Shown here: piece by piece, positions 4,270 through 29,671 of the stretch
Layout: every line of letters starts with the position of its first letter
Position numbering within the stretch: the first letter of the stretch is position 1
Assembly (NCBI GenBank): GCA_039935875.1
Contig: JBDTJK010000286.1
Location: 1 to 35,255 of the forward strand
DNA length: 35,255 nucleotides
From: Casimicrobiaceae bacterium
GTDB taxonomy: Bacteria > Pseudomonadota > Gammaproteobacteria > Burkholderiales > Casimicrobiaceae
Direction: 5' to 3'
Notes under the pieces: generated by a model
What the model was told of the DNA's origin: nothing
Database searches by the model: none
What the model saw: the letters and a program-made list of their open reading frames with translations, nothing else
Made by a program: the position numbers and the translations under genes

Positions 4270-4354
4270 CCGGCAGGTAGCCGGTTCGCGCGCTCGCGCC
4301 AACCGTTCGCATGTGCATGTGTCAGCCTGAATGAGCCGAACGGAAAGGATACCC

Positions 4355-4993
4355 ATGGAAATGCAAGCCGAAAAGAGGGCTGTACTCCCGACCGACGCCG
4401 ATCTCGACCGCGCCATCGCCGAGCGCGTCGACGCGATACTCGACGAGCGGCTGGAGGCGAAGCTCGCGGCGCTCAAGGCGGCCAAGGTGCCGTCGATGAC
4501 CATCATCGCCACCAAGGGAACGCTGGACTGGGCATATCCGCCCTTCATCCTGGCGTCGACCGCCGCGGCACTCGGCTGGAACGTGTCGATGTTCTTCACG
4601 TTCTACGGGCTCGAGCTCCTCAAGAAGGACCTGTCCTCGTTGCGCGTGAGTCCGCTCGGCAATCCCGCGATGCCGATGAAGATGCCCTTCGGGCCGGAAT
4701 GGTTCAAGTCGATCGGCTGGAAGATCCCGAACGTCGTGCAGTCGAATGTCCCGGGATTCCAGAAGTTTTCCACCACGATGATGAAGCGGACGATCAGGAA
4801 CAACGGCGTGGCGGAAATTGCCGAGCTGCGCGAACTCTGCGTCGAGGCCGGCGTGAACCTGATCGGTTGCCAGATGACCGTCGACCTGTTCGGATACAAG
4901 CGCAAGGATTTCGTTGCCGACGTCACGGAATATGTCGGCGCCGCGAGTTTCCTGCCGATGGCGCGCGACGCCGATGTGAGTCTGTTCATTTAA
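4355..4993 (+). CDS. dsrE2: DsrE2-type sulfurtransferase (DsrE/F/H-like)
   Basis: TKGTLDWAYPPFILASTAAALG..FFTFYGL, PLGNPAMP, GCQMTVDLFG and GAASFL motifs; follows tusA. Start placed at the ATG after AAAGGA. Confidence 0.88.
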   Translation: MEMQAEKRAVLPTDADLDRAIAERVDAILDERLEAKLAALKAAKVPSMTIIATKGTLDWAYPPFILASTAAALGWNVSMFFTFYGLELLKKDLSSLRVSPLGNPAMPMKMPFGPEWFKSIGWKIPNVVQSNVPGFQKFSTTMMKRTIRNNGVAEIAELRELCVEAGVNLIGCQMTVDLFGYKRKDFVADVTEYVGAASFLPMARDADVSLFI

Positions 4994-5055
4994 GAGCGCG
5001 GTCCGGAGGACGGCGCAGTGCGCCGAAGTCAACGAGTTTTCCCTAGGGAGCTAAC

Positions 5056-6393
5056 GTGAAAACAAGAATGATTGTGGCGCTCGCTGCGATGGTGCCGTTC
5101 GCCGCACAGGCGACTGACGGCTATTTTGCCAATGGGTACGGCATGAAGTCGCTCGGCATGGGAGGTGCCGCCTCCGCCGTTGCGATGGAACCCTTTTCCG
5201 GCGCGGTGAATCCGGGGTCGGCGGCGTTCATGGACAATCAATGGCAAGTGGGAATGTCCTGGTTCTCGCCGCGCCGCAATGCATCGCGCTCGGATTCCGG
5301 GCCCGCCAGCATCGATGGCTATGCCGACAGTGGCAGCAATAATTTCTTCATTCCCGAAATCGGCATCAACTGGAAGTACAGTCCGAATATCGCGCTCGGC
5401 CTGACCGTTTACGGGAACGGCGGAATGAACACCGACTATCCCGGCGGGCAGATCACCGCGCAGAGCGCGTGCTCGCAGTTTCGCGGCGGGCAGGGCGCGC
5501 CGTACAACCTTTTATGCGGCAGCGGCAAACTCGGCGTCGATCTGATGCAGGTCATCTTCGCCCCGTACGCGTCGTGGCAGTTCACCAAGGGTCATTCGGT
5601 GGGCATCGCGCCGCTGATCGCCTACCAACGGTTCTCGGCCGACGGCCTGCAGGCGTTCGACAACCCGGGGTTTTCCTCCAGCCCCGGCAATGTGACCAAC
5701 AACGGCCACGACGACTCCTGGGGTGCCGGCGTGCGCATCGGCTACATGGGCCAGCTCACCGAGCAGTTCGCGGTGGCCGCCACGTATTCGACCAAGATCA
5801 GCATGGGCAATTTCGACAAGTACAAGGGATTGTTCGCACAAGGTGGCGGCTTCGACATTCCGTCGAGTTTCACCATCGGCACGGCATTGCGTCCGGTCAA
5901 GCCGCTGCTGGTCGCGGTCGATTACCAGCGCATCTTCTACGATGACGTGCCGTCGGTGAACAACCCGAGCGCGTCGATCGGGTACTGCCCGCCGCCGCCG
6001 ATGGGTGGCGGTCAACCGCAGTACTGCCTCGGCGCCGACAGTGGAGCGGGCTTCGGCTGGCAGAACGTCGACGTCTGGAAGATCGGCGTCCAGTACGACA
6101 TCAGCGACCAGTTGACGATTCGCGGCGGCTACAACCACACGGACAACCCGATCCGCTCGCAGGACGTGACCTTCAACATCATCGCGCCGGGGGTGGTCCA
6201 GAACCAGTGGACGGCGGGTGCGACGTGGCGCCTCGACAATGTCTCGGAGATCACCGGCGCGTTCATGTTCGCGCAAAACAAGTCGGTCACCGGCTCGAGC
6301 CTCCTGGTTGGATTCGGCCTGCCGCAGACGACGACCGAAACCATCGCGATGAAGCAATACCAGTTCGGGCTTGCCTACAACAGGAAGTTCTGA
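5056..6393 (+). CDS. Outer-membrane transporter, FadL/TodX/OmpP1 family
   Basis: Signal peptide (AQA-T), hatch TDGYF..GYG.KS.GMGG...NPG, YGNGGMNTDY, amphipathic beta strands and C-terminal Phe. Confidence 0.88.
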   Translation: MKTRMIVALAAMVPFAAQATDGYFANGYGMKSLGMGGAASAVAMEPFSGAVNPGSAAFMDNQWQVGMSWFSPRRNASRSDSGPASIDGYADSGSNNFFIPEIGINWKYSPNIALGLTVYGNGGMNTDYPGGQITAQSACSQFRGGQGAPYNLLCGSGKLGVDLMQVIFAPYASWQFTKGHSVGIAPLIAYQRFSADGLQAFDNPGFSSSPGNVTNNGHDDSWGAGVRIGYMGQLTEQFAVAATYSTKISMGNFDKYKGLFAQGGGFDIPSSFTIGTALRPVKPLLVAVDYQRIFYDDVPSVNNPSASIGYCPPPPMGGGQPQYCLGADSGAGFGWQNVDVWKIGVQYDISDQLTIRGGYNHTDNPIRSQDVTFNIIAPGVVQNQWTAGATWRLDNVSEITGAFMFAQNKSVTGSSLLVGFGLPQTTTETIAMKQYQFGLAYNRKF

Positions 6394-6399
6394 GGTTCG

Positions 6400-6441
6400 C
6401 CGACCCGCGTCGGACGCGGCGGGTGTCATCACGCCCGCCGC
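6400..6441 (+). promoter_or_regulatory. Tandem GC-rich hairpins between the FadL-like and SCP2 genes
   Basis: CCGAC-CCGC-GTCGG (6400-6413) and GCGGCGGGTGT-CATC-ACGCCCGCCGC (6416-6441). No U-tract follows, so more likely mRNA-stabilising than a terminator. Confidence 0.4.
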
Positions 6442-6457
6442 ATACTTGGGAGAATGT

Positions 6458-6976
6458 ATGCGCGCCAATGCGTTGATCGCCTCGCTGATCGCGATGGCGT
6501 TCGCCGGACCGGTTCTCGCCGCGCCGATGCTAATGTCGGGCGATTGGGCGAAGGACGCCTGCGATGCGTGGAACAAGGACCCCGTGCTTACCGACAAGCT
6601 GGTCGAAAGCGGCTGGGTCAAGAACGACAAGGGGCGCGGCTTCAAGGTCATGCAGGTCTACCGCTCCGACTGCGGCGACAAGCCCACTGCCGAAATGAGG
6701 ATTTCCCTCAAGGATGGCAAGGCGGCATGCGTCTACGGGGGAGCCATCGAAACCACGAAATTGGACGGCGACGCTGATTACGTCATGAAGGCCGAGTCGG
6801 CCCGCTGGGTCGAAATGGGCAAGGGTGAATATGGCCCGATGGCGGGAATGATGTTCAGACGCCTGGGCTTCGACGGACCGATGATGGAGGCGATGGGCAA
6901 CATGGGACCGTTCGAGAACTTCCTGCTGCTGGTCGGAAAGGTACCCTCCGACACGACCGCTTGTCCGCGCGATTGA
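6458..6976 (+). CDS. Exported SCP2 (sterol-carrier/lipid-binding)-like protein
   Basis: Start trimmed to MRANALIASLIAMAFAGPVLA (signal peptide). ADYVMKA...W..MGKGEYGPM.GMM..RL.FDGPMMEAM matches the SCP2 C-terminal pattern; four Cys. Confidence 0.72.
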   Translation: MRANALIASLIAMAFAGPVLAAPMLMSGDWAKDACDAWNKDPVLTDKLVESGWVKNDKGRGFKVMQVYRSDCGDKPTAEMRISLKDGKAACVYGGAIETTKLDGDADYVMKAESARWVEMGKGEYGPMAGMMFRRLGFDGPMMEAMGNMGPFENFLLLVGKVPSDTTACPRD

Positions 6977-7659: not shown

Positions 7660-8718
7660 ATGGGCAACGATCTTCGAAGACTCACCGTCGCGGTGCAGCG
7701 CAACTGCGACATCTCCGATGCCTGCTACGCGGGCGACTACGGGCTCTGCACGTTTCTGCTGAAGATGCGCGAGTACTATCGCTGGGAGCGTGGATTGCCG
7801 TTCAGCCACACCCTTTCCAGGGACGAACTGGGCGCATGGCTGGACACGCGCGAGCGCGCATGGAACGACCTCGAAGCCGAGGCATTCGCGCCGCTGCCAC
7901 TTGCCGGCGGAGCGCTCGATCCATTTGACGCGGATACCGCCAATCGGGAACTGCTGCCGCAGGGTTGCGTGTACAGCGCGGGCTATGGGCGCTTCCGCAA
8001 GCCGCTGTTCTTTCTTGGACGGCTGCTTCGGATCGAGGAGCGCGCAGGGCTGACCATCCTGATTTCTTCGCGCGAACTCGCGCGCGAGTTGGCCGCGCCG
8101 CCCGCAATGCTCCAGGGCCGCACTGTTTTCGTTCGCATGGAGTCGGTCCGCCGTTACCTCTGGGAAAAAATCGAGGAGTGGCAATTGCACAAACGGGCCA
8201 ATGCCATGGCACGAGCGCTTGCGAGCTACGATTTCGACGGCGACGCCGATGAAGCATTGCGGCGCATGGCCGACAACGAAGCGGAATCCATGATCCTGCA
8301 CGAGGTGGGCGAGGCAATGGCGGGCGAGCGCCTGGGCGTTGCGTGGCAGGAAATGACGACGGCGGCGGCGCGCACGCGCGGCGAGCCCGCATTGCGCGCG
8401 ATCCGCGACCTGCTCGCGGACTGCCTGTCGACACTGCCGGCACTCCTCGCGCGCGCCAACCCGGCGGCGTTGCATTTCCATTTTGCCTGCCTCGACGCGC
8501 CGCGGCGCCAGATGTTTCCGCAGGCGCTCGAAGCCTACGAGGAGTTTCTCCGCGATGGCACGACGCATCGGCTAGCGACGGTCGTGAACGAGGGCAGCGA
8601 ACGCTGGCTGGCGACGGCCGGAGAACTGCTCGCTCTCGACCCGGCCAGCCGGGAGTCGGCGTTGTACGCGCTGCTCGACAACTGCGAGGCGCAGGCGGGT
8701 ACGGCCGTCATTCGCTAG
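7660..8718 (+). CDS. dsrS: DsrS-like (Sfum_1244-type) conserved protein
   Basis: VQRNCDISDA...YGLCTFLLKMREYYRWE, YSAGYG, ILHEVGE and RAIRDLLADCL motifs, recognised from memory as the family found in Dsr-containing bacteria. Size (352 aa) fits DsrS; the symbol is tentative. Confidence 0.6.
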   Translation: MGNDLRRLTVAVQRNCDISDACYAGDYGLCTFLLKMREYYRWERGLPFSHTLSRDELGAWLDTRERAWNDLEAEAFAPLPLAGGALDPFDADTANRELLPQGCVYSAGYGRFRKPLFFLGRLLRIEERAGLTILISSRELARELAAPPAMLQGRTVFVRMESVRRYLWEKIEEWQLHKRANAMARALASYDFDGDADEALRRMADNEAESMILHEVGEAMAGERLGVAWQEMTTAAARTRGEPALRAIRDLLADCLSTLPALLARANPAALHFHFACLDAPRRQMFPQALEAYEEFLRDGTTHRLATVVNEGSERWLATAGELLALDPASRESALYALLDNCEAQAGTAVIR

Positions 8719-9298
8719 CGGGAGCCGCATCCACAGTCATATCCACCAGTTTGCGCACGAGCGGCAGCATTTCCGGGGCTTCGACGTCCATGACTTGTTC
8801 GACCACCCACTTGTTGTCACCGCTCGCCATCGCGTCAGATACCTTGGATGCAAGAAATAGCAGGCAGGGAAGCGGCGGTTCGCCATCGCGAAACACGAAC
8901 TCGGCGTACTCGCCGAAGCGCGCGTTGAGCAGGGCGACAAAAGGCTCGCGGTACTCGCCAGGGCCGAAGAGGTCCTGCTGGTTGTTTTCCATGGTCGCCG
9001 CCAGGTGGCGGGCCACTTCGCCGATGAGCGTGGCGCGGTCGGCTTCGTTCAACCTGCCGTACACCGCCCGATCGACGAGCTGGACGAGAAAGGCGATGAA
9101 CTCGGCGAGGACGTCGGTGACCATCCGGTCGGAACCGAATCGGAAGCCATCCCTTTCCATGTGCTTGAATATCTCGAGCGCGATTTTCCACACGTTCGCG
9201 CCGATTACGCTGGCGCGGTCGGCGAGGGTCCGGGGTTTCTTGTTGCGCCAGCGGGTTTTGACGAGAGCGATCGCCGGTCGACTGCTGATGATGGCCAT
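8708..9298 (-). CDS. Conserved hypothetical all-helical protein (196 aa)
   Basis: Protein-like composition (EFIAFLVQLVDR, LNARFGEYAEF, KWVVEQVMDVEAPE); converges on the dsrS-like gene with an 11-bp overlap. Confidence 0.75.
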   Translation of the reverse strand: MAIISSRPAIALVKTRWRNKKPRTLADRASVIGANVWKIALEIFKHMERDGFRFGSDRMVTDVLAEFIAFLVQLVDRAVYGRLNEADRATLIGEVARHLAATMENNQQDLFGPGEYREPFVALLNARFGEYAEFVFRDGEPPLPCLLFLASKVSDAMASGDNKWVVEQVMDVEAPEMLPLVRKLVDMTVDAAPASE

Positions 9299-9348
9299 GG
9301 GGTAGTGGGCTTCAACTGATTCGGCGATAATAGCCCCGCGGAGGAAAC

Positions 9349-9786
9349 ATGCCGGGACTGGACATCGAAATGGCGAGCGGCGTTGCCGCTTTCGAGGCCA
9401 AGGAATTCGCGCGGGCGATGCAACTGCTGCAGCCGCTGGCCGAGCGGGGCGATCCGCGCGCGCAGTATCGCGTCGCGATCATGGCGCAGGTAGGGCTGGG
9501 AATGGTGAAGAATTGCGCGACGGCGGTCAGGTGGATGCGTGCCGCCGCCGAGCAGGGGGATGCGCTGGCGCAGCACGGCCTGGGATTCATGTATTTCCAG
9601 GGCGAATGCACGAAATCCGACCCCGCCGAAGCCGCGCGGTGGTTCAGGCTTGCAGCCGATCAGGGACTCGCCGGATCGCGATCGATGCTCGCGTCGATGT
9701 ACGAAAAGGGCGTGGGTGTCGTCCGCGACCCCGTCGCGGCAGCCCACTGGAAGGTGCTGGCCGAGAAGGACTTCGACGCTTCCTGA
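9349..9786 (+). CDS. Sel1-like repeat protein
   Basis: GGAGG RBS; repeats AERGDPRAQY, AAEQGDALAQHGLGFMYFQGE and AADQGLAGS..LASMYEKGVGV; no signal peptide. Confidence 0.88.
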   Translation: MPGLDIEMASGVAAFEAKEFARAMQLLQPLAERGDPRAQYRVAIMAQVGLGMVKNCATAVRWMRAAAEQGDALAQHGLGFMYFQGECTKSDPAEAARWFRLAADQGLAGSRSMLASMYEKGVGVVRDPVAAAHWKVLAEKDFDAS

Positions 9787-10109
9787 TGCGCTTCAAGATC
9801 GTCATCGCGGAGCAGGTCTACGCGGTCGACGTGCCGGATGACGTGCTGCGCCAGGCGGCCGAGTTCAATGCCAAGCTGGACCGCGATATGGATCGGGGCT
9901 GGCAGATGAGCCGGGAGTTCGTGCAGCGGCCCGACCAGCTGCAGCGTTGCCAGATCGTCGCGGACAAGCTCCTGACCAGCATCATCAACGGCAACCAGAC
10001 GACCGCGATGCTGATGGCCGCGTACATTGCCCTGCGCGTACCCGGCACCACCGGCGTGGATGTGGACGCGTCCGGCGAAATGCAGAACACCGCGCTGCTG
10101 CATGGGTGA
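9786..10109 (+). CDS. Conserved hypothetical protein (107 aa)
   Basis: TGATG coupling to the Sel1 gene; MRFKIVI...KLDRDMDRGWQMSREFV..PD..QRCQIVADKLL...GEMQNT. Confidence 0.78.
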   Translation: MRFKIVIAEQVYAVDVPDDVLRQAAEFNAKLDRDMDRGWQMSREFVQRPDQLQRCQIVADKLLTSIINGNQTTAMLMAAYIALRVPGTTGVDVDASGEMQNTALLHG

Positions 10110-10112
10110 GCG

Positions 10113-10706
10113 ATGACGTTTTCCAGCGCGCGCATCCGCGAAGTCAAGCCGCTCAGCTTCATCTACGAGATGATCGGAGCGCTTCCCGCCGACGTCTGCA
10201 TCGAGGCGATCCGGCGTTTCGAGGACCGCGCCGACCAGCAGGTTCCCGGTCGCATCGGCCAAGCGGGCGAAGAGATGCCAGAGGTCAAGCGTTCGACGGA
10301 CCTGCGCATCAGCGGGCGCGACGACTGGTGCGACATCGACCGGACGCTGTCGCAGCAGCTCGTCGCCACGTTCAATGAATTCGCGCTCGAATTCCCGTTC
10401 TTTGCCAGCAACGCGTTCAAGGACATCGGCTACAACCTGCAGCGGACGCTGCCCGGCGAGTATTACCACTGGCACGTCGATGCCGGACCCGGACCGTTTC
10501 GGGATCGCCAGTTCGTGGCGATCTGGTACTTGAACGATGTTCCGGGGCCGGGCGGCGGGACCGAATTCCCGCTGCAGGACGTGGTGATCCGGCCCCAGCA
10601 GGGCAAGCTCCTGGTGTTCCCGCCGTTCTGGACCCACGTGCATCGCGGCGTCATCCTGGAACACGGCGTCAAGTACATTGCCACCACCTGGATCTGCTTC
10701 GCCTGA
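10113..10706 (+). CDS. Fe(II)/2-oxoglutarate oxygenase, prolyl-4-hydroxylase-like
   Basis: YHWHVD, IWYLNDV..GGGTEF, GKLLVFPP.WTHVHRG and KY motifs. Confidence 0.87.
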   Translation: MTFSSARIREVKPLSFIYEMIGALPADVCIEAIRRFEDRADQQVPGRIGQAGEEMPEVKRSTDLRISGRDDWCDIDRTLSQQLVATFNEFALEFPFFASNAFKDIGYNLQRTLPGEYYHWHVDAGPGPFRDRQFVAIWYLNDVPGPGGGTEFPLQDVVIRPQQGKLLVFPPFWTHVHRGVILEHGVKYIATTWICFA

Positions 10707-10718
10707 ACCAGCTGACCA

Positions 10719-11393
10719 ATGCTCCTGCCCATTCCCCGCGTTCTCAAGCCCGACGAGTTGACGCTCGTGCGCGACTGGCTCGCCGACGCGCATTTCGTCG
10801 AGGGTCGACTTTCGGCGGGCGCGGCGGCGCGCCGCGTGAAGAACAATCAGGAGGTCGAAGGCGACACGGCGGATGCCGCACGCATCAGTCGAGTCGTGAT
10901 GGGCGGACTCGTGCGCCATCCGGTCTATCGTGCCGGGGCGATGCCCCTGCACGCGGCAAGCCCGCTGTACGCGCGTTACCGTTCCGGCATGGCTTACGGC
11001 GATCACCTCGACGATCCAGTCATGGGCGCCGACGGCATCAAGTACCGTTCAGATATCGCGGTCACGATCTTCCTGAGCGGGCCGCAGGAGTACGACGGTG
11101 GCGAACTCGTGATCCGTTCGCCTGCGGGCGACCAGGAGGTGAAACTTCCTGCGGGCGACGCGGTCCTGTACCCCGCGGGCAGCATTCACCATGTCAATCC
11201 GGTCACGCGAGGCGAGCGTCTGGTCGCGCTTACCTGGGTGCAGAGCCTGATTCGCGATTGCGGCCAGCGCGAATTGCTCTACGGACTCAACGGGGCGCGG
11301 GAGACGCTGTTGCAACGCGCACCCGACGCTGCGGAAACCGCGCAGGTGAATGCAGCCTACCTGAACCTGATCCGCATGTGGTCGGACCTTTGA
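10719..11393 (+). CDS. PKHD-type Fe(II)-dependent hydroxylase (YbiX/PiuC family)
   Basis: GRLSAG..A.RVKNN, YGDHLD, RSDIAVTIFLS.P.EYDGGEL, HHVNPVTRGER and NLIRMWS motifs. Confidence 0.92.
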   Translation: MLLPIPRVLKPDELTLVRDWLADAHFVEGRLSAGAAARRVKNNQEVEGDTADAARISRVVMGGLVRHPVYRAGAMPLHAASPLYARYRSGMAYGDHLDDPVMGADGIKYRSDIAVTIFLSGPQEYDGGELVIRSPAGDQEVKLPAGDAVLYPAGSIHHVNPVTRGERLVALTWVQSLIRDCGQRELLYGLNGARETLLQRAPDAAETAQVNAAYLNLIRMWSDL

Positions 11394-11403
11394 GGCAGGC
11401 GCG

Positions 11404-11703
11404 ATGACAGAAGCGGAGCATTCCATTGAAGAACGGATCCTGCAGGCGGTGAAACTGACGCTTGCCTGCGTGATCCGGGACACCGCGACACCGCAGGGTA
11501 TGCGCCACCCGCTCTCCGACGGGACCATCCAGGATCTTCGGCAGTGCCTGGCGCTGATCAGCGCGCGCGAACGCGAGCTTGCGCAGGCCGCGGGAATGTC
11601 GATGAACTCCCGCCCGCATTACGCCGACGAAGCGGCGAGCGAGGACACGGTGATCCATTTTCACCGCAAAAAACCGTCCGGCAACGAAAGCCAGGATAGC
11701 TGA
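11404..11703 (+). CDS. Conserved hypothetical protein (99 aa)
   Basis: Fills the operon slot exactly; EERIL...L..VIRDTATP.GMRHPLSD.TIQD.RQCL.LISARE. Confidence 0.75.
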   Translation: MTEAEHSIEERILQAVKLTLACVIRDTATPQGMRHPLSDGTIQDLRQCLALISARERELAQAAGMSMNSRPHYADEAASEDTVIHFHRKKPSGNESQDS

Positions 11704-11705
11704 GC

Positions 11706-12020
11706 ATGTCTTCCGACAGCTGCAGCAAGCTCGAACCCTACGCGTTGCGCGTACTCGGCGACAGCATGGCGCCCGAATTCGCCGATGGCTGTGTGGTCAT
11801 CGTCGATCCGGGCCACGTGCCGCACGACGGGTCGTACGTGATCGTCGAGTTTGCCGGAGATGTCTTTTTCCGGCAGCTGGTCATCGACGGTGAGCGGCGC
11901 TATCTGGCGCCGCTCAACCCCAAGTACGGGCGCTTCGAACTCGTTTCGCCCTACAACATCCGCGGAGGCGTGGTGCAGCAGGCGGGGCGCAGGCGCGCGC
12001 AGCGCAGGCACTACGACTGA
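11706..12020 (+). CDS. Stand-alone S24/S26 (LexA/UmuD C-terminal-like) peptidase domain
   Basis: YALRVLGDSMAPEF.DG.VVIVDP...L.PLNP.Y; no HTH; the catalytic Lys position reads Arg (FFRQL). Confidence 0.82.
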   Translation: MSSDSCSKLEPYALRVLGDSMAPEFADGCVVIVDPGHVPHDGSYVIVEFAGDVFFRQLVIDGERRYLAPLNPKYGRFELVSPYNIRGGVVQQAGRRRAQRRHYD

Positions 12021-12026
12021 CGCCGG

Positions 12027-12368
12027 TCAGTAGCCACCTTTGCGCAGACTCTCCGGCAGCCCGGCAACCATGCCCGCCTGCTTGGACGGGTTGCCCGGGA
12101 AGAGATCGAACAGCGTCTTGTTGTCCACCTTCCGGTCGGGCCACTTTTCCTGCATCGCCTTCAGGATCGCGCGGTTGTTTGGCTGCTCGGCGTTGTTGTT
12201 GAAGTATGCATCACGCAGGTACTCGATCACGTCCCAATGGTCCTGGGTGAGACTCAAGCCTTCCGCGACCGCGATCGCCTCCGCGACATCCCTGTCCCAG
12301 TCCTCCGGCGACAGCAGGAATCCCGTCTGCGTGGCTTCGATCACTTTGCCCTGGATTTCGTAGGCCAT
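12027..12368 (-). CDS. DsrC/TusE-family paralogue with no cysteine (RspA-type)
   Basis: GAGGAGG RBS; GFL....DW...VAE.IA..EGL.LT.DHW.VI.YLR...LF.LFP..P.KQA...AGLP; ends RKGGY; contains no Cys. Confidence 0.88.
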   Translation of the reverse strand: MAYEIQGKVIEATQTGFLLSPEDWDRDVAEAIAVAEGLSLTQDHWDVIEYLRDAYFNNNAEQPNNRAILKAMQEKWPDRKVDNKTLFDLFPGNPSKQAGMVAGLPESLRKGGY

Positions 12369-12385
12369 ACGCGCCTCCTCTGTGA

Positions 12386-13075
12386 TCAATCCGACCTGGA
12401 ATGGAGGTCGCCGATGTCCTTGTGGGGAATGAAGATACCGCAGCCGAGCCGGCGCTCGACGCCCATTCCGCGCCGCTGCAGCACCAGCGATTGTGCCCGC
12501 GTGAGCCCGGCGAGCATCAGGCTACGGGTCTGGTAGACCTGCGCCGGGGTAGCAATCGGCGTCGCGCGGCCGCACAGCAGGGTTGCGGGAACGATCCCGA
12601 GCGTGCGCAACTCGTCCTCTGCGGCGGATACGAAAGCGATTTCGTCGTCGGCATCGGCGGCGGCGAACACGACGCTGTGCGCGTGCAGGGTTGTGATCCG
12701 CGAAAGCGATCGCACTGCGAGCCGGTCGACGTGCAGCGGCCAGCCAGCGACTTCGAGCGTGTGTCCGAGCAAGGCGGCGGCATCCTCGAGGCGATGCGCG
12801 GGCAGGCGCAGTGCCAGCTTTGCGCGATGCGAAAGCTGCAGCAGCGCGTCCGCACCTTCCGGCCGCATCCAGCCGCTGCCGGAGGTCGCACCATGAATGG
12901 TATGCAGGCCGGTATCCGGCTCGCCGGAAAACCACGGCAGCGCATTCGCGACCGCCTGCGACAGGGCCCATGCATGGTCGACGGGCAGACTGCGACAGGT
13001 GATTGCGAACACCGCATCCACGACGTCACCCTCAACGGTTTCGTTGCTGCCGAATGCCATGCGTGCAGGCGCCAT
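12386..13075 (-). CDS. cas6: Orphan Cas6-family RAMP protein (type I-MYXAN Cas6/Cmx6-like)
   Basis: N-terminal VDAVFAITCRSLPVDHAWAL, LRLP, and C-terminal SLVLQRRGMGVERRLGCGIFIP (Cas6 Gly-rich loop GhGxxxxhGhG). Start at ATG 13075 or 13060. Confidence 0.82.
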   Translation of the reverse strand: MAPARMAFGSNETVEGDVVDAVFAITCRSLPVDHAWALSQAVANALPWFSGEPDTGLHTIHGATSGSGWMRPEGADALLQLSHRAKLALRLPAHRLEDAAALLGHTLEVAGWPLHVDRLAVRSLSRITTLHAHSVVFAAADADDEIAFVSAAEDELRTLGIVPATLLCGRATPIATPAQVYQTRSLMLAGLTRAQSLVLQRRGMGVERRLGCGIFIPHKDIGDLHSRSD

Positions 13076-13079
13076 TCGC

Positions 13080-13802
13080 CTATGTCGTCGGCAGCGCGGC
13101 TTGGAGGGCGTCGCGATCGAACCACCAGTCGTCCTGGACCAGCACGTCGACGATGTTGCGCAGGCGCGGCAGGAACCGTTCGGGATCGTTGAGTTCCATG
13201 TCCACAATCCACTTGTCGAAAGCCTGTTGTCCGTCGACGCCGCTGTGCCGGCGCGCAACCGTGGCGAGCAACTGATTGACGTAGATAAGCAGGTGCTCGC
13301 GTTGCGGTTCGCCGGCCCGCAGATCGACCAGGTAGAAGGCCGTGATCGCGGCCACCGCTGCGCCGTCGGATTCCGGCGGCGTCTCCTCGACCACCCGCTG
13401 CAGCAAAGCCACGCTCAACTCGGGGTCGACCGGGTAGGTGACGGCGAGCCAGATGCCATTCCCCAGTGCCGGAAGCGAATCGGGCTGGTCGGCGAGGAAA
13501 AGGATGTCGCATGCTTGCACGGCGCCTTCCCACGCCAGCTCGGCCATGTAGAGATCGAAGGCCGCGCGCGCGGCGTCCCAGGCTTCGGACTGTTGCTCCA
13601 GCCGCACCAGCGCGCGGCCGAGTTGCAAAAGGATGTCCGCACGCCGCAAGGATTCCGCGCTGGGAGAGAGCCGCGCGAACTGGCCGCGCAGGTCGGCGAC
13701 CAGACGCTCCAGCATGCCGGTCGACTCCTTCGCGTCCTCGCTGCTGTCGGCATTGCCTACGCTGGGGTCTTCCTTGATGTACTTGAGGGGTATGTATTTC
13801 AT
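13080..13802 (-). CDS. Conserved hypothetical helical-repeat (TPR-like) protein (240 aa)
   Basis: ATGA overlap with the upstream tauD-like gene; RADILLQLGRALVRLE...AW..AR.AF; GIWLAVTYPVDPELSVALL; C-terminal WWFDRDALQ. Confidence 0.8.
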   Translation of the reverse strand: MKYIPLKYIKEDPSVGNADSSEDAKESTGMLERLVADLRGQFARLSPSAESLRRADILLQLGRALVRLEQQSEAWDAARAAFDLYMAELAWEGAVQACDILFLADQPDSLPALGNGIWLAVTYPVDPELSVALLQRVVEETPPESDGAAVAAITAFYLVDLRAGEPQREHLLIYVNQLLATVARRHSGVDGQQAFDKWIVDMELNDPERFLPRLRNIVDVLVQDDWWFDRDALQAALPTT

Positions 13803-14746
13803 TCGTCACCAGCGTTGTCTTGTTGGAACGGGCCGAGCGTGGCGACGCCGTCCGCGACGCGATCGAAATAGCGAGCGCGATAAACGAGCCGCCCCGGAGC
13901 CGGGGCCTCCGCGTTCGTGAAGGCGCTGCGGCCGTGCAGCACGTTGTTGCACACCAAGCCCTGCCCGCCCGTGAGGCGCAGCGTGAACACGTAGGGCGAC
14001 TTTGCGTCGAGGATCTGGTTGAGAAACTGCAGGGCGGCGCGCAGCGTCTCGTCGGTGCGCCATTCGATGCTGCGTGTGCGCGCCGTGTAGCGCATGTGCA
14101 ACGCGCCGCCGTCGGTCGCGAACACCGGACCGGAAACGGCCGGGCGAGGTGCCATGCCTGCGGAGTCGTTGGGGGGAATCGTCATGGCGTCAAGGCGGCA
14201 CAGCGCCTTGACGTAATCCGGGTTGGCGTCGCGCAACAGGATGTAGGCGATCTCGTGATCCAGCAGGCAGTTTTCGCCACCGACGGTGGCCGGATGCACG
14301 CAGTGCAGGATGAACGCACGGATGCGTTGCTGTTGGGTGTTGTAATAACCATCGGTGTGCCACAGCAGGCGACGGTTCGAATAGGGAATATATCCAAGCG
14401 CCGATTTTTCCGGCGTCGCTTCGAGTGCGCTGATGCCGTCCTCGTCCGCGAATGGATTTCCGGCAACGCGTAGCAGTCCGAGCCTCTCGCCCAGCCGGCG
14501 TGGAAGCTGCCGGTCGGCGACGCCAGCGAAAGCGCTCACGTAGACCGCCATGTTTGCAAGACCGATGATGCGCTGGATTGCCGCGATCTCGCTCTGGCGA
14601 GGGTTGCGCGGATCGCGCACTTCCACGACCAGGTCCTCGACCCGGCGCGGATAGCGCTCGAGCTTGCGCTCGCGCCAGCGGGCGTACGCCTGCGGCTGGT
14701 CCAGCGCAAACGGGTCTTCAGCGGCGGCGGCGAGTGGCGTATTCAA
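13799..14746 (-). CDS. TauD/TfdA (clavaminate synthase-like) Fe(II)/2OG dioxygenase
   Basis: WHTDGYY, LHC..PA..GGEN.LLD and NNVLHGRSAF...RL.YRARY motifs. Start placed at TTG 14746 (uncertain). Confidence 0.82.
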   Translation of the reverse strand: MNTPLAAAAEDPFALDQPQAYARWRERKLERYPRRVEDLVVEVRDPRNPRQSEIAAIQRIIGLANMAVYVSAFAGVADRQLPRRLGERLGLLRVAGNPFADEDGISALEATPEKSALGYIPYSNRRLLWHTDGYYNTQQQRIRAFILHCVHPATVGGENCLLDHEIAYILLRDANPDYVKALCRLDAMTIPPNDSAGMAPRPAVSGPVFATDGGALHMRYTARTRSIEWRTDETLRAALQFLNQILDAKSPYVFTLRLTGGQGLVCNNVLHGRSAFTNAEAPAPGRLVYRARYFDRVADGVATLGPFQQDNAGDE

Positions 14747-15030
14747 GCGCGGCGGTCTGCATTCGAGGTCAGGGGGAGAAGAACGTACCGCATCGGCATG
14801 ACGGAGAGAATGCCGATGCGCGCAGCATCGGCTGCCTGCGGCGCGACGATTGTCGGCAGAACGACCACAACTGCCGGAAAACAAAACGTTTTCTGAAATA
14901 TGCGACGGAAAGGTCTATCTCCAAAGGGGGGGGCATCCGATCGTGGGTACCTCCAATGACTTGTCAGTGTGCGTTCCTATGCGTCGCTACACTGTCGTCA
15001 CCGCGATTGCCTTTCCCGGAGGAAGACTTC
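14747..15030. promoter_or_regulatory. Divergent promoter region shared by the tauD-cas6 operon and dsrA
   Basis: Non-coding gap containing an 11-bp inverted repeat (14789-14820), a 6-bp inverted repeat (14854-14876), palindrome AAAACGTTTT (14883-14892), TAYCTCCAA twice (14916, 14948), -10-like TACACT (14988) and the GGAGGA RBS of dsrA. Confidence 0.6.
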
Positions 15031-16335
15031 ATGTCCGACCTGCAAAAGCCACCCAAAAATCCCGAGCGGCACAGCACCTACGTTCCTTCGGAAAGGAAGT
15101 CGACCAAGGCGTTCCATCCGACGCCGATGCTCGACCAGCTCGAAAGTGGCCCCTGGCCGAGTTTCGTCACTGGGCTGAAGCGGCTCGCGCACGACAACAA
15201 CATGATGGTCGACCTGCTGGGCCAGCTCGAGCATTCGTACAAGACGCGCATCGGTTACTGGAAAGGCGGCACGGTTTCGGTGTTCGGTTACGGCGGGGGC
15301 ATCATCCCGCGCTTCTCCGAAGTCGCCAGCATGTTCCCCGAGTCCAAGGAATTCCACACGCTGCGGGTGCAGCCGCCGGCCGGCAACCACTACACGACCA
15401 AGGTGCTACGCCAGCTCTCCGACTCCTGGAGCAAATGGGGGTCCGGGTTGATCGCCTTCCACGGCCAGACCGGCAACATCATGTTCATCGGCACCACGAC
15501 GGAGAATACCCAGCACTTCTTCGACGAAATCAACGAGTACGGTTTCGACCTGGGCGGCGCGGGTCCCTGCGTGCGCACGGCCATGTCTTGCGTGGGCGCG
15601 GCGCGCTGCGAGCAGTCGTGCACCAACGAGCACCGCATTCACCGCACGCTGGTCAACAATTTCATCGACGACATGCACCGGCCGGCGCTGCCCTACAAGT
15701 TCAAGTTCAAGGTCTCGGGCTGTCCCAACGACTGCATGAATTCCATACAGCGCGCGGATTTCGCGGTGATCGGCACCTGGCGCGACGACATGCAGGTCGA
15801 CCAGAAGGAGGTCAAGGCCTATGTCGACGGGCACGGCCGCAAGTACACGATCGATAACGTGATCGCGCGCTGCCCGACCAAGGCGCTGTCCCTCAACGAC
15901 GACGACACCCTCGAGGTGGACAACAAGAGCTGCGTGCGCTGCATGCACTGCATCAATGTCATGACCAAGGCGCTGAAGCCCGGCAAGGATCGCGGAATCA
16001 CGCTGCTCATTGGCGGCAAGCGCACGCTCAAGATCGGCGACACCATGGGCACGGTGATCGTGCCGTTCATGAAGATGGACACCGACGAGGATTACGACAA
16101 ACTGCGCGACCTTGCCGCGACGGTGATCGATTACTGGGCGGAAAACGGGTTGGAGCACGAGCGCTGTGGCGAGATGATCGAGCGGATCGGGTTGGCGAAT
16201 TTCCTGGAAGGTATCGGCATCGACGTTGACCCGAACATGATCGCCCATCCCCGTACCAGTTCCTACGTCCGCCTGGACGACTGGGATCAGGAAGCGCAGA
16301 AGTGGATCGACCGCCACCCGCAGCCGGTTGCCTGA
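15031..16335 (+). CDS. dsrA: Dissimilatory sulfite reductase alpha subunit (oxidative type)
   Basis: TPMLDQLESGPWPSFV, YWKGG, siroheme-[4Fe-4S] motif CVGAARC...FKFKVSGCPNDC and ferredoxin CVRCMHC. Start at the ATG after GGAGGA. Confidence 0.98.
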   Translation: MSDLQKPPKNPERHSTYVPSERKSTKAFHPTPMLDQLESGPWPSFVTGLKRLAHDNNMMVDLLGQLEHSYKTRIGYWKGGTVSVFGYGGGIIPRFSEVASMFPESKEFHTLRVQPPAGNHYTTKVLRQLSDSWSKWGSGLIAFHGQTGNIMFIGTTTENTQHFFDEINEYGFDLGGAGPCVRTAMSCVGAARCEQSCTNEHRIHRTLVNNFIDDMHRPALPYKFKFKVSGCPNDCMNSIQRADFAVIGTWRDDMQVDQKEVKAYVDGHGRKYTIDNVIARCPTKALSLNDDDTLEVDNKSCVRCMHCINVMTKALKPGKDRGITLLIGGKRTLKIGDTMGTVIVPFMKMDTDEDYDKLRDLAATVIDYWAENGLEHERCGEMIERIGLANFLEGIGIDVDPNMIAHPRTSSYVRLDDWDQEAQKWIDRHPQPVA

Positions 16336-26985: not shown

Positions 26986-27324
26986 ATGACACTTGCTGAC
27001 GGGGGAAGGACTGTACCGACCGATGACGAAGGCTACCTGATCGAGCCCGCGGACTGGAACCGTGAAATCGCGGGACAAATGGCGCGCCAGGAACACATCG
27101 TGCTGACGGATGCGCACTGGGCGGTGATTGGATTCATGCGCGAATACTTCGAGCAGCACCAGATCGCTCCGGATGCGCGCCACGTCATCAAATTCCTGGC
27201 CCGGTACAGGGGCGAGGATAGCGGCGGTCGAAACGAGTTGTTCAAGCTCTTTCCCTATGGCTATGTCAAGCAGGCCTGCCGCATCGCCGGTATGCGCAGG
27301 CCCCGCGCATGGAGTACCGGCTGA
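26986..27324 (+). CDS. DsrC/TusE-family paralogue retaining only the upstream Cys (RspA-type)
   Basis: TDDEGYL...LFPYGYVKQACRIAGMRRPRAWSTG; lacks the penultimate Cys. Confidence 0.9.
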   Translation: MTLADGGRTVPTDDEGYLIEPADWNREIAGQMARQEHIVLTDAHWAVIGFMREYFEQHQIAPDARHVIKFLARYRGEDSGGRNELFKLFPYGYVKQACRIAGMRRPRAWSTG

Positions 27325-27664: not shown

Positions 27665-27741
27665 ACCCGATGCTGGACGCGAAGGCGCCGGCCAAGTAGT
27701 CTCGCCGCTTGTCCACAGTCGGCGCCGCCCAGGTCCGTTGC

Positions 27742-28971
27742 ATGTCCGAGCCCCAAGCTCCGCACCCAGGCAAGTATGCAGATGACCTGGCGGACGCGGG
27801 GGCGCAGGCGCGCATCCCGATGGTGCGCCTGGCGCGCAAGACCCAGTCGCTCGACATCCTGTATGCGATCGCCACGGTCCTGAGTCAGCCCGGCAGCCTG
27901 GAGCAGCTGCTGGAGAACTTCCTCGACACCTTGATCGAGCTCGTCGACGCGCGCGCGGCCAGCGTGCGCGTCGGAACCGAGGACGGCAATACGCGGCTCA
28001 TCGCCAGCCGCGGCCTTGCGCGCGAGGTTGTTGAGCGGGATCGGCTGATGCCGGCCGGGCAATGTCCCTGCGGCTGGGCGGCGACCACGGGCGAACTGCG
28101 TATCCAGCGTGGCACCGCGCCGTGTGCGGCGCTGATCGGTCAGCCGATGCTCGATTCCGACTGCGCGGAATTCGTCGTCGTGCCGGTTCACTATCAAGAC
28201 CGGGTGCTCGGGGTGTACAACCTGTTTCTGGATCGCCCGCTCGTCGCCATGGGCGAGGATGTGCACGATCTGCTGATTACCGTGGGCCGGCACCTGGGGC
28301 TTGTCATCGAGAAGGCGCGCCTGGAAAGCGAAGCGCGCCGCTTCGCGATTCTGGAGGAGCGCAACATCATCGGCGTCGAGTTGCACGATTCGCTGGCGCA
28401 ATCGCTGATTGGCATGCGCCTGCAGCTGACAATGCTGAGCGAAGCGCTGGCACGGGAGGACATCGGCGGCGCACGCCAGGAGGCAAGCGGCCTCACCCTT
28501 GCGATGACGCAGGCCAACGCGGACGTACGTGATCTGCTGACTAACTATCGCCTGAAGATCGACGCCGCCGGACTCGTGCAGACGCTCGCCAATCTGGTCG
28601 AGCGCTTCGGCAGGGAAACCGGCATCGCCGTGTACTTCCAGAACGAATGCGTGCCATTGGCGCTTTCGCCGGCCCAGGAGGTCCAGGTCTTCTACATCAT
28701 CCAGGAGGCGCTCGCCAATATCCGCAGGCACAGCGAAGCGAGCAACGTACGCATCATGCTCAACAACGAGGATGATCTGTATACGGTGCTGATCGAGGAC
28801 GACGGACTCGGCATGATCGGATCCGACGACGGCACGCCGGAGAAGCACGCGGGGCTGACCATCATGCGCGAACGCACGCTGCGCCTGCGCGGCCAGATCG
28901 TGATCGAGAGCGAGCCGGGCGAGGGCACGCGCATCGTACTGATCTTCAACGCGCCTCCGAGGCGGAGCTGA
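27742..28971 (+). CDS. Soluble NarX/NarQ-like sensor histidine kinase (GAF + HisKA_3 + HATPase)
   Basis: EERNII..ELHDSLAQSL, QEALANIRRH, EDDGLG and ESEPGEGT motifs; Cys-rich GAF; no TM helix. Start at 27742 (or TTG 27709). Confidence 0.88.
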   Translation: MSEPQAPHPGKYADDLADAGAQARIPMVRLARKTQSLDILYAIATVLSQPGSLEQLLENFLDTLIELVDARAASVRVGTEDGNTRLIASRGLAREVVERDRLMPAGQCPCGWAATTGELRIQRGTAPCAALIGQPMLDSDCAEFVVVPVHYQDRVLGVYNLFLDRPLVAMGEDVHDLLITVGRHLGLVIEKARLESEARRFAILEERNIIGVELHDSLAQSLIGMRLQLTMLSEALAREDIGGARQEASGLTLAMTQANADVRDLLTNYRLKIDAAGLVQTLANLVERFGRETGIAVYFQNECVPLALSPAQEVQVFYIIQEALANIRRHSEASNVRIMLNNEDDLYTVLIEDDGLGMIGSDDGTPEKHAGLTIMRERTLRLRGQIVIESEPGEGTRIVLIFNAPPRRS

Positions 28972-28972
28972 A

Positions 28973-29671
28973 ATGAACCCGCCCGGGATGCGCGTCCTGC
29001 TGATCGACGACCATGCGCTGGTCCGCAAGGGCATCGAGGAGCTGCTGCGAAGTCGCGGAGTGCAGGTAGTGGCCTCGGCAAGCTCCGGAGAGGAAGGCAT
29101 TCGCAAGGCCGGCGAACTCACCGCCGACATCATCCTGCTCGATATCAAGATGCCGCGGATGACGGGCATCGAGACGTTGACGAAGATTCGCGCGGCAGGA
29201 ATTAGTACGCCGGTGGTGATGCTCACGATGAGCCGTGAGGATGCCGACCTGTCGGCGGCCCTGCGCGGTGGTGCCCAGGGCTTCCTGTTAAAGGACATCG
29301 AGCCGGAGGAGCTGGTGCCCGCGCTCGAAGCCGTGCTTGCCGGCGCCAATGTCGTGGCGCGGGAGATGGTGGGGACACTGGCCCGCCACGTGGGAGGCGA
29401 GGAGAGTCAGGAACGCGCTGCGCTGCGCCCAGCGGCACTGTTTTCCGAACTCACGCCCCGCGAGCTCGAAATCCTGGAGCACGTCGCCGATGGCTCAAGC
29501 AACAAGATGATCGCGCGCCACCTGGACATCGCCGAGGGAACGGTCAAGCTGCACGTCAAAGCGATTCTGCGCAAGCTCAACATGCGCTCGCGCGTCGAGG
29601 CCGCCGTCGCCGCAGTGGAACATGGACTCGGCAAGTACCGGAGGAAGTCGCCTCCGGTGTCCGGCAAATGA
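28973..29671 (+). CDS. NarL-family response regulator
   Basis: REC domain (LIDDH, LLDIKMP, GFLLK) and LuxR HTH (LTPRELEIL...SNKMIA..L.I.EGTVKLHVKAILRKL). Confidence 0.92.
   Translation: MNPPGMRVLLIDDHALVRKGIEELLRSRGVQVVASASSGEEGIRKAGELTADIILLDIKMPRMTGIETLTKIRAAGISTPVVMLTMSREDADLSAALRGGAQGFLLKDIEPEELVPALEAVLAGANVVAREMVGTLARHVGGEESQERAALRPAALFSELTPRELEILEHVADGSSNKMIARHLDIAEGTVKLHVKAILRKLNMRSRVEAAVAAVEHGLGKYRRKSPPVSGK

Follow-up and report, generated by a model that had tools for sequence, protein, structure and literature searches.

A Cas6-fold protein fixed beside the dsr genes of gammaproteobacterial sulfur oxidisers reads as an exapted pseudo-nuclease

Contig JBDTJK010000286.1 of a Casimicrobiaceae bacterium (assembly GCA_039935875.1), analysed over its positions 1 to 35,255 and hereafter called the window, carries a reverse dissimilatory sulfite reductase (reverse-Dsr, rDsr) gene cluster headed by dsrA and, divergent from it, an operon encoding a protein of the CRISPR-associated Cas6 family. 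Our comparative analysis supports the exaptation of the Cas6 fold from CRISPR to gammaproteobacterial reverse-Dsr sulfur oxidation: the gene accompanies dsrA through the class, its products form one clade, and they read as pseudo-nucleases. Our preferred reading, to which we give a probability of roughly 0.45, is that the protein is a non-catalytic, protein-level accessory factor of Dsr sulfur oxidation, likely a binding adaptor that works with its neighbours in building up or protecting the machinery of the Dsr sulfur relay.

The Cas6-like protein belongs to a dsr-linked clade

The original prediction, made from the letters of the window alone, had proposed a Cas6 fold, which profile and structure searches corroborated as a double RNA-recognition motif (RRM). 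The protein passes the curated cut-offs of PF09559 (183.6 bits, E 5.2e-54) and TIGR02807 (108.7 against 98.85), and the nearest structure to its AlphaFold model (pLDDT 91.5, from a 132-row alignment) is the Cas6 of a type I-B CRISPR-associated transposon (CAST), 8FCJ_B (Foldseek E 2.7e-15, TM 0.74, 20% identity), followed by other Cas6 proteins. Its tandem RRMs and C-terminal GhGxxxxxGhG loop with K/R place it in the Cas6/Cmx6 fold family.

We assigned 240 loci by closeness to the profile of the window protein or to a CRISPR profile, and then scored their neighbours. On the window-profile side (155 loci), 147 had dsr-type neighbours, eight had none of the query genes and none had cas genes; on the CRISPR-profile side (85 loci), 68 had cas genes, 17 were short contigs without context and none had dsr genes. 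A FastTree phylogeny of 190 sequences, to which the later dsr loci contributed 20 random picks and the metagenomic CRISPR loci 35, gathered all 150 dsr-type sequences into one clade (SH-like support 0.977, stem 0.80), bearing out the suggestion of a dsr-linked clade apart from CRISPR Cmx6. With the root placed on a cyanobacterial CRISPR Cas6, we infer that the direction ran from CRISPR to dsr, and the protein likely descends from a type I-B Cas6. Phage and viral collections held no homologue, and among sequencing runs no RNA data set was listed as containing one. No longer fused forms were found, which is weak evidence; an apparent single frame joining a tetratricopeptide-repeat (TPR) region to Cas6 in locus L138 reads as a frameshift artefact.

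Co-occurrence with dsrA and independence from CRISPR

An even draw of 400 genomes from the class of the window, 399 of which were scored for PF09559 and dsrA, gave 119 with both, six with PF09559 only, five with dsrA only and 269 with neither (phi 0.94, with kin not independent). The statement in the original prediction that such a gene recurs beside dsr genes in other sulfur oxidisers holds: 119 of the 124 dsrA-bearing gammaproteobacterial genomes carry it, and in 93 of these 119 it lies within 4.5 kb of dsrA, divergently in 93/93. Among 40 close relatives, all five dsrA genomes have it within 2 kb. The six genomes with PF09559 only comprise two true type I-B loci, one with part of dsrA, one with a dsrHCMK run truncated at the contig start and two with dsr accessory context close to contig ends. 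In three of the five genomes with dsrA only, the contig stops within ~1 kb upstream of dsrA; a sensitive search for the Cas6-like gene in these five returned nothing.

The distribution draws covered the class and the phylum of the window. In the five non-gammaproteobacterial rDsr loci with the closest DsrA, which are without cas6, the TauD-like gene that heads the window operon is still divergent from dsrA (5/5), which would make this gene, dsrQ, the older resident and the Cas6-like gene a class-specific addition.

The module had also been put forward as a candidate for CRISPR independence, and CRISPR is indeed not needed by the Cas6-like gene. Of 39 selected genomes that carry the gene, 19 have no Cas1, seven of these being closed single-contig assemblies, and the cognate Myxan-type I-B Cas7 was found in 0/39, the positive control being detected. 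Neither repeat nor array lies near any dsr-type locus scanned. A k-mer scan of the window and of its 3.0-Mb assembly (469 contigs, 81% complete) found no CRISPR array, in agreement with the absence first reported for the 35 kb; Cas1 and a second PF09559 gene were likewise not found in the assembly, where absence proves little alone at that completeness. Processing of a distant CRISPR array in trans, or carriage as a neutral passenger, would fit the presence of Cas1 somewhere in the other 20 of the 39 genomes. The CRISPR-less closed genomes largely refute this explanation. The lack of cognate Cas7 also speaks against it, as does a gene that more than 90 genera keep in single copy and with invariant residues, and it is the least probable of those that we consider.

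Three side observations concern the wider family. In family f142 (L043, L045, L046), the cas6-like gene lies away from dsr, head-to-head with rnc-era, and the promoter operator described below stays at dsrA. Genuine type I-B (Myxan) cas loci occur in two dsrA-negative gammaproteobacterial genomes (L038:19-1219 and L042). In L038 there is, besides, a long region of tandem repeats whose spacing is short and variable; it may not be a CRISPR array.

Residues kept and lost in the dsr-linked clade

A residue census compared 185 dsr-clade copies with 60 CRISPR Cmx6 proteins. In TtCas6A and TtCas6B of Thermus, the alpha1-beta2 loop supplies the catalytic His, recognition of the RNA stem falls to a beta-hairpin, and the Gly loop aids binding (passages of PMC3902920). 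That loop His, placed here by predicted secondary-structure position rather than by residue-level superposition or assay, is found in 1/185 dsr copies against 58/60 CRISPR Cmx6, with a Pro-Trp motif in its stead; any His within residues 47-54 occurs in 17/185 dsr copies. The beta-hairpin has lost an RRTxRxKxK-type segment and holds a median of 2-3 K/R (5 in CRISPR copies), core net charge is +1 to +2 rather than +6, and median pI is 6.4 rather than 9.8. Of the marks of a functional CRISPR Cas6, the clade as a whole shows neither the loop His, nor the basic beta-hairpin, nor a cas3/5/7/8 or array context (0/155 loci). These residues give the dsr-linked protein the look of a pseudo-nuclease whose binding surface has been remodelled, and it likely no longer cuts RNA. 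The LPxDH segment and Gly-rich loop singled out in the original prediction are both present in the window protein (LPVDH and GMGVERRLGCGIF), but they are not signs of an intact enzyme, the likely catalytic loop His being gone.

Much else has been retained. The Gly loop is kept in 182/185 dsr copies, with at least one K/R within it in 178/185; D33-H34 occurs in 152/185 and H58 in 165/185; R84 and R90 are present in 185/185 and, like the Gly loop and the DH pair, are RNA-binding-type features; and R133, R184, R208 and K219 are likewise conserved. An active endoribonuclease that processes dsr transcripts, with H34, H58 or R208 replacing the lost His, would draw on the persistence of D33-H34, H58 and the Gly loop, and the active site of TtCas6B does include a helix-alpha1 residue, His23 (passages of PMC3902920). 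Against such an enzyme, the loop His is lost in 184 of the 185 copies, hairpin-reading residues are fewer, no repeat or array accompanies the scanned dsr-type loci and, as set out below, no conserved hairpin to cut was found; we hold it to be improbable.

The clade has also acquired residues that are rare or absent in CRISPR Cmx6: W48 (169/185 vs 0/60), R84 (185/185 vs 12/60), C168 (142/185 vs 0/60) and a C-terminal H/Q/Y-K/R pair (180/185 vs 1/60). Ferredoxin-like folds are known to have been reused for tetrapyrroles, and a carrier or chaperone of an anionic small molecule or cofactor such as siroheme, or a sulfur-handling protein using the new Cys, would be in keeping with C168, with several conserved His/Arg and with cysG in the same clusters. 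C168 is not invariant, however, and non-gammaproteobacterial rDsr bacteria make the same cofactor without a Cas6-like gene, which leaves this explanation with a small share of probability.

Search for an RNA target

Eight region sets of 11-138 non-redundant sequences each were assembled: the flanks of cas6 on either side, the stretch that follows the DsrC paralogue, and the gaps dsrA-B, B-E, E-F, H-C and C-M. No conserved non-coding RNA element emerged from these flanking and intergenic sets, which a target inside coding sequence would escape, and Rfam gave no match in the window. The clearly enriched words were only adjoining coding sequence and ribosome-binding sites, and dsrB-dsrE had a slight word excess (5/23 vs 3 in shuffles). 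The original proposal that Cas6 was exapted for control or processing of dsr transcripts accordingly divides: exaptation is supported, and transcript processing is not, given the near-total loss of the loop His, the less basic hairpin and the lack of an RNA element.

Since the Gly loop and the invariant arginines persist, the main rival to an accessory protein factor is a non-cutting RNA binder that would hold single-stranded dsr mRNA, or another RNA, in the inter-RRM groove and tune its translation or stability. The RAMP (repeat-associated mysterious protein) fold and the conserved R133, R184, R208 and K219 are consistent with this, as is the head-to-head arrangement with rnc-era in family f142; a further basic groove of Cas6 proteins, distal to the first, takes single-stranded RNA, and one Cas6 homologue without catalytic activity is known (passages of PMC3902920). 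The region sets without a conserved element, a dsrA leader of variable length and the drop in median pI argue the other way, and we judge RNA binding unlikely, while ranking it above every other rival.

The operon and its variable neighbours

The features of the operon and the head of the dsr cluster are as follows.

13799-14746, minus strand: TauD-like Fe(II)/2-oxoglutarate dioxygenase, dsrQ (315 aa; PF02668 E 3.6e-17; TTG start inferred)
13080-13802, minus strand: acidic, helical TPR-like protein outside any named family (240 aa; TPR-like by Atlas structure)
12386-13075, minus strand: dsr-linked Cas6/Cmx6-fold protein of the long subclade (229 aa; PF09559 and TIGR02807, fold match, clade, residue census)
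12374-12379, minus strand: AGGAGG ribosome-binding site of the DsrC paralogue, read from sequence, just past the cas6 stop
12027-12368, minus strand: Cys-less DsrC paralogue with KGGY tail, RspA-like (113 aa, no Cys; PF04358 E 1.9e-31)
15031-16335, plus strand: dsrA, head of the dsrABEFHCMKL... cluster (Pfam: DsrA/B, E, H, C, M, K and L-type; NCBIfam: DsrE, DsrF)

The co-oriented, tightly packed arrangement of the original prediction was confirmed at its coordinates: the first two genes share an ATGA overlap (13799-13802), the helical gene is 4 nt from the cas6-like gene (13076-13079), and the ribosome-binding site follows. The plus-strand dsrA lies 284 bp from the start of this minus-strand operon. 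Coupling of the four genes holds among near relatives, where all four are kept divergent from dsrA in 40 of 46 related loci with enough flank (from the 80 closest matches), but not class-wide. The gene preceding cas6 in 174 loci is the TPR-like helical gene in 84, DUF6967 in 46 and neither in 44, never both; DUF6967 shares its reading frame with the cas6-like gene in two genomes that belong to a single genus (L329:1477-2448 and L331:1531-2496, both minus strand). The four-gene unit is not obligate across the class; only Cas6 is constant.

The helical protein has no Pfam or NCBIfam match; its Atlas structure gives TM 0.53-0.68 to TPR clusters, it carries a net charge of -17, and alignment marks it as a conserved family. 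The KGGY DsrC paralogue is directly downstream of cas6 in 143/172 loci, its RKGGY tail is invariant in 70/70 aligned homologues (selected for a GGY end), and its RKGGY or GKGGY form follows the cas6 subclade. It has a DsrC fold without C-terminal cysteines, as RspA presumably does. Cys-less DsrC paralogues (RspA) have been proposed to be regulatory; the KGGY paralogue does not track the dsrA operator. In the TauD-like gene, full-length homologues keep HxD in 108/108 and the distal His and Arg in 106/108, and the HxD...H iron triad together with the position divergent from dsrA identify it as DsrQ. A tauD-like gene so placed was named dsrQ, with its substrate only speculated (passages of PMC7596348, reporting Lenk et al. 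2012).

The original prediction also offered a scaffold, with the Cas6-like protein joining the DsrC paralogue and the dioxygenase. We predicted a three-chain complex of the Cas6-like, TPR-like and DsrC-paralogue proteins, the dioxygenase being left out. It scored 0.34 against 0.00 for the best control (agreement between runs of 36% of contacts or more, partner pLDDT of 78 or more), a value within the range where the tool is more often wrong than right: that mark is reached by 116/157 solved complexes and 2/215 mismatches, but just 18 of the solved complexes, against both mismatches, reach it at 0.60 or less. The score drops to 0.00 once the TPR-like chain is replaced. Co-folding lends the scaffold idea weak support, with the TPR-like neighbour as partner rather than the DsrC paralogue.

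The dsrA promoter and its candidate regulator

The region shared by dsrA and the operon holds a palindrome, and a two-component system lies at the far end of the dsr cluster.

14916-14931, strandless: putative palindromic operator site 1, TATCYC-N4-GRGRKR (position weight matrix score 24.6, top in the assembly; ~-76 from the inferred dsrA transcription start)
14948-14963, strandless: putative weaker operator site 2 (~-41; placed by its offset from site 1)
14988-14993, plus strand: likely dsrA -10 element TACACT (placed by its spacing from site 1)
27709-29671, plus strand: GAF-HisKA_3 kinase and NarL-type response regulator (Pfam; DNA-binding domain best matches NarL, E 1.3e-16; co-occurrence)

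The palindrome exceeds 8 bits in 82 of 85 training loci, on which it was both trained and scored (shuffled 99th percentile 9.6), reaches 17-25 bits in five held-out loci, and is not found in five non-gammaproteobacterial rDsr loci without cas6 (0/5); in the window assembly it is essentially unique to dsrA. A -10-like hexamer stands +71 to +75 from site 1 in 59/86 loci, the distance from site to dsrA being 104-419, and among the 86 loci scanned a second half-site matched in 56, at +34 to +37 in 51 of these. Loci of the short cas6 subclade have tandem TACCC...GGGTA variants. The dsrA leader runs from ~30 to several hundred bases, and a strict sigma-70 scan found no full promoter. By its sequence and spacing, the palindrome is a predicted DNA operator with activator geometry, outside the putative dsrA transcript. 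A role as an RNA hairpin was rejected, there being A-G mismatches in 42/86 loci and a fixed distance upstream of the -10 element; changes in the right arm are compatible with G-U pairs at three positions.

The window response regulator combines REC and LuxR helix-turn-helix domains, a cognate HisKA_3 kinase and the recognition helix TVK(L/V)HVK. Set against the NarL operator consensus, the dsrA sites resemble the 7-2-7 operators of NarL/NarP in their 16-bp inverted repeat, in lying at ~-76 and ~-41 and in the matching recognition helix; they differ in that the long-subclade half-site begins TAT rather than TAC, the kinase has a GAF input and the site is essentially dsrA-only. Counted among the matches listed (up to 36 candidates per genome), close regulator homologues occur in at least 43 of 47 gammaproteobacterial rDsr genomes, 29 of these 43 within 25 kb of dsrA, and in at least 9 of 14 Burkholderiales with the Cas6-like gene; they were found in 0/7 non-gammaproteobacterial dsrA genomes and, at low identity, in 2/12 dsrA-negative ones.

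Three genomes (G199, G344, G048) keep cas6 beside dsrA with motif scores of only 4.9, -3.7 and 4.0 bits and no close regulator among the matches listed. The motif tracks the regulator and not Cas6 in these genomes, so the NarL-type response regulator likely binds the dsrA palindrome; two others (G394, G434), with the regulator present and a weak motif (3.3 and 7.2), speak against the link. We had at first entertained the Cas6-like protein itself as a DNA-binding activator recognising the palindrome, given the motif in nearly all training loci and in none of the non-gammaproteobacterial loci without cas6, its different form in the two cas6 subclades, and the want of a CsoR-family gene in five genomes. 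It was dropped given G199, G344 and G048, the co-occurrence of the regulator and the match of its helix to NarL, and we rate it as very improbable. DsrC, which is reported to bind upstream of the dsr cluster in A. vinosum (passages of PMC5944118), remains another candidate binder. A CsoR-family binder was rejected for the lack of such a gene in the five genomes, and the KGGY paralogue for its failure to track the motif.

As an observation in its own right, the GAF-HisKA_3 kinase and NarL-type regulator at the end of gammaproteobacterial dsr clusters, with the two-site dsrA operator, form a candidate sulfur-oxidation switch. Family f137 (L259, L398, L406) represents a second dsrA locus type, in which the cassette is missing and the operator weak; the gene divergent from dsrA in L259 is LysR-like.

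A proposed role and the evidence on both sides

We propose that early in the gammaproteobacterial rDsr lineage the already resident dsrQ, divergent from dsrA, gained a type I-B cas6 behind it, and that the NarL-type regulator linked to dsr would control the operon jointly with dsrA through the region that the two share. The Cas6-like protein may bind an acidic protein, namely the TPR-like neighbour or, in its stead, DUF6967, and with the Cys-less KGGY DsrC mimic it might act on the assembly or availability of DsrAB/DsrC, the least supported step. Two 1.1-Mb genomes keep cas6 beside dsrA without the operator and, among the matches listed, without the regulator, so a housekeeping role fits better than a regulatory one. 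This survival without the regulator, together with the lost cutting and hairpin-reading parts and the lack of an RNA target, favours a non-catalytic, protein-level role.

Several observations weigh against that role. The Cas6-like gene was found in 0/40 dsrA-positive genomes of other classes (phylum-wide draw of 300), so Dsr chemistry in itself can do without it. No partner is obligate, given the 44 loci with neither upstream gene; in a check of 10 genomes, 7 had no KGGY paralogue, six of them cas6-bearing, and the paralogue is present in 3 of 4 non-gammaproteobacterial rDsr genomes without cas6. The low complex score, the positional placement of the catalytic His, the kept Gly loop, the persistent DH pair and the invariant R84 and R90 count on the same side. 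The fuller account has a Cas protein domesticated a single time, after which the nuclease site was lost and the protein turned into a near-universal adaptor in gammaproteobacterial reverse-Dsr; with a TPR-like or DUF6967 partner, a cysteine-free DsrC mimic and an O2-using dioxygenase, it would build or gate the sulfur relay under a dedicated NarL-type switch. This account is offered tentatively, at somewhat less than even odds.

Relation to known systems

The closest known relative is the type I-B (I-MYXAN) Cmx6, such as 8FCJ_B, with which the dsr-linked protein shares the double RRM, a PxDH starting helix alpha1, R90, Q200 and a GCG Gly loop. Unlike it, the dsr copy has no cas genes or array nearby, forms a separate clade, has lost the loop His, has a less basic hairpin and carries the new W48, R84, C168 and C-terminal HK; the long dsr subclade further adds an MxWxE N-terminus and an SGNGWxRP (SGxGWxRP) insertion. 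The non-catalytic Cas6 homologue of Pyrococcus horikoshii likewise has a Cas6 fold without cleavage (predicted in our case), and 3QJJ is among the fold matches; that homologue is still studied as an RNA binder of a CRISPR-bearing archaeon, whereas the window protein is fixed in an energy-metabolism cluster (passages of PMC3902920). The TauD-like gene is the same gene as dsrQ in position and orientation, and is so also in the five non-gammaproteobacterial rDsr loci; here it heads a longer operon, and the main text of the paper has 0 occurrences of Cas6 (PMC7596348). The DsrC paralogue shares the PF04358 fold, without C-terminal cysteines, with the DsrC/TusE/RspA family (passages of PMC8477390) and is a distinct subfamily with an invariant KGGY end.

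No literature linking Cas6 to dsr was found in a search that left most subscription journals outside, so a printed mention is possible. The I-B Cascade of PMC11096372 is another one, and its passages name no residue as catalytic in Cas6; passages of PMC10952691, PMC3368242 and PMC5944118 mention cas6 or CRISPR only in CRISPR contexts. The Cas6 fold, dsrQ and Cys-less DsrC paralogues were already known; the dsr-bound, likely catalytically dead Cas6 clade was not met with in print in this search.

Other genes of the window

A third DsrC paralogue (26986-27324, plus strand) directly follows dsrN, ahead of the two-component genes. An accessory run (7660-12020, plus strand) converges on the operon and recurs near cas6 in many loci; it comprises a DUF6866/Sfum_1244-family gene, which may be DsrS, a gene of unknown family, a Sel1-like gene, another unknown, two 2OG-Fe(II) oxygenases, a 99-aa helical protein and a stand-alone S24 peptidase domain. 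In all, three 2OG oxygenases stand unexplained beside dsr in the window. Upstream of this run (4331-6976, plus strand) lie dsrE2, a FadL/porin-like outer-membrane protein and an SCP2-domain gene, for which a link to sulfur uptake is possible.

Implications

The Cas6-like gene nearly equals dsrA as a marker of gammaproteobacterial reverse-Dsr sulfur oxidation. JGI and NCBI names call it a CRISPR protein, which inflates CRISPR counts and hides an uncharacterised component of a sulfur pathway of global importance. The candidate regulator and operator make the switching-on of dsr directly testable. If the protein is indeed a pseudo-nuclease adaptor, it would be a Cas protein at work in core energy metabolism, rather than in defence, transposition or cas regulation.

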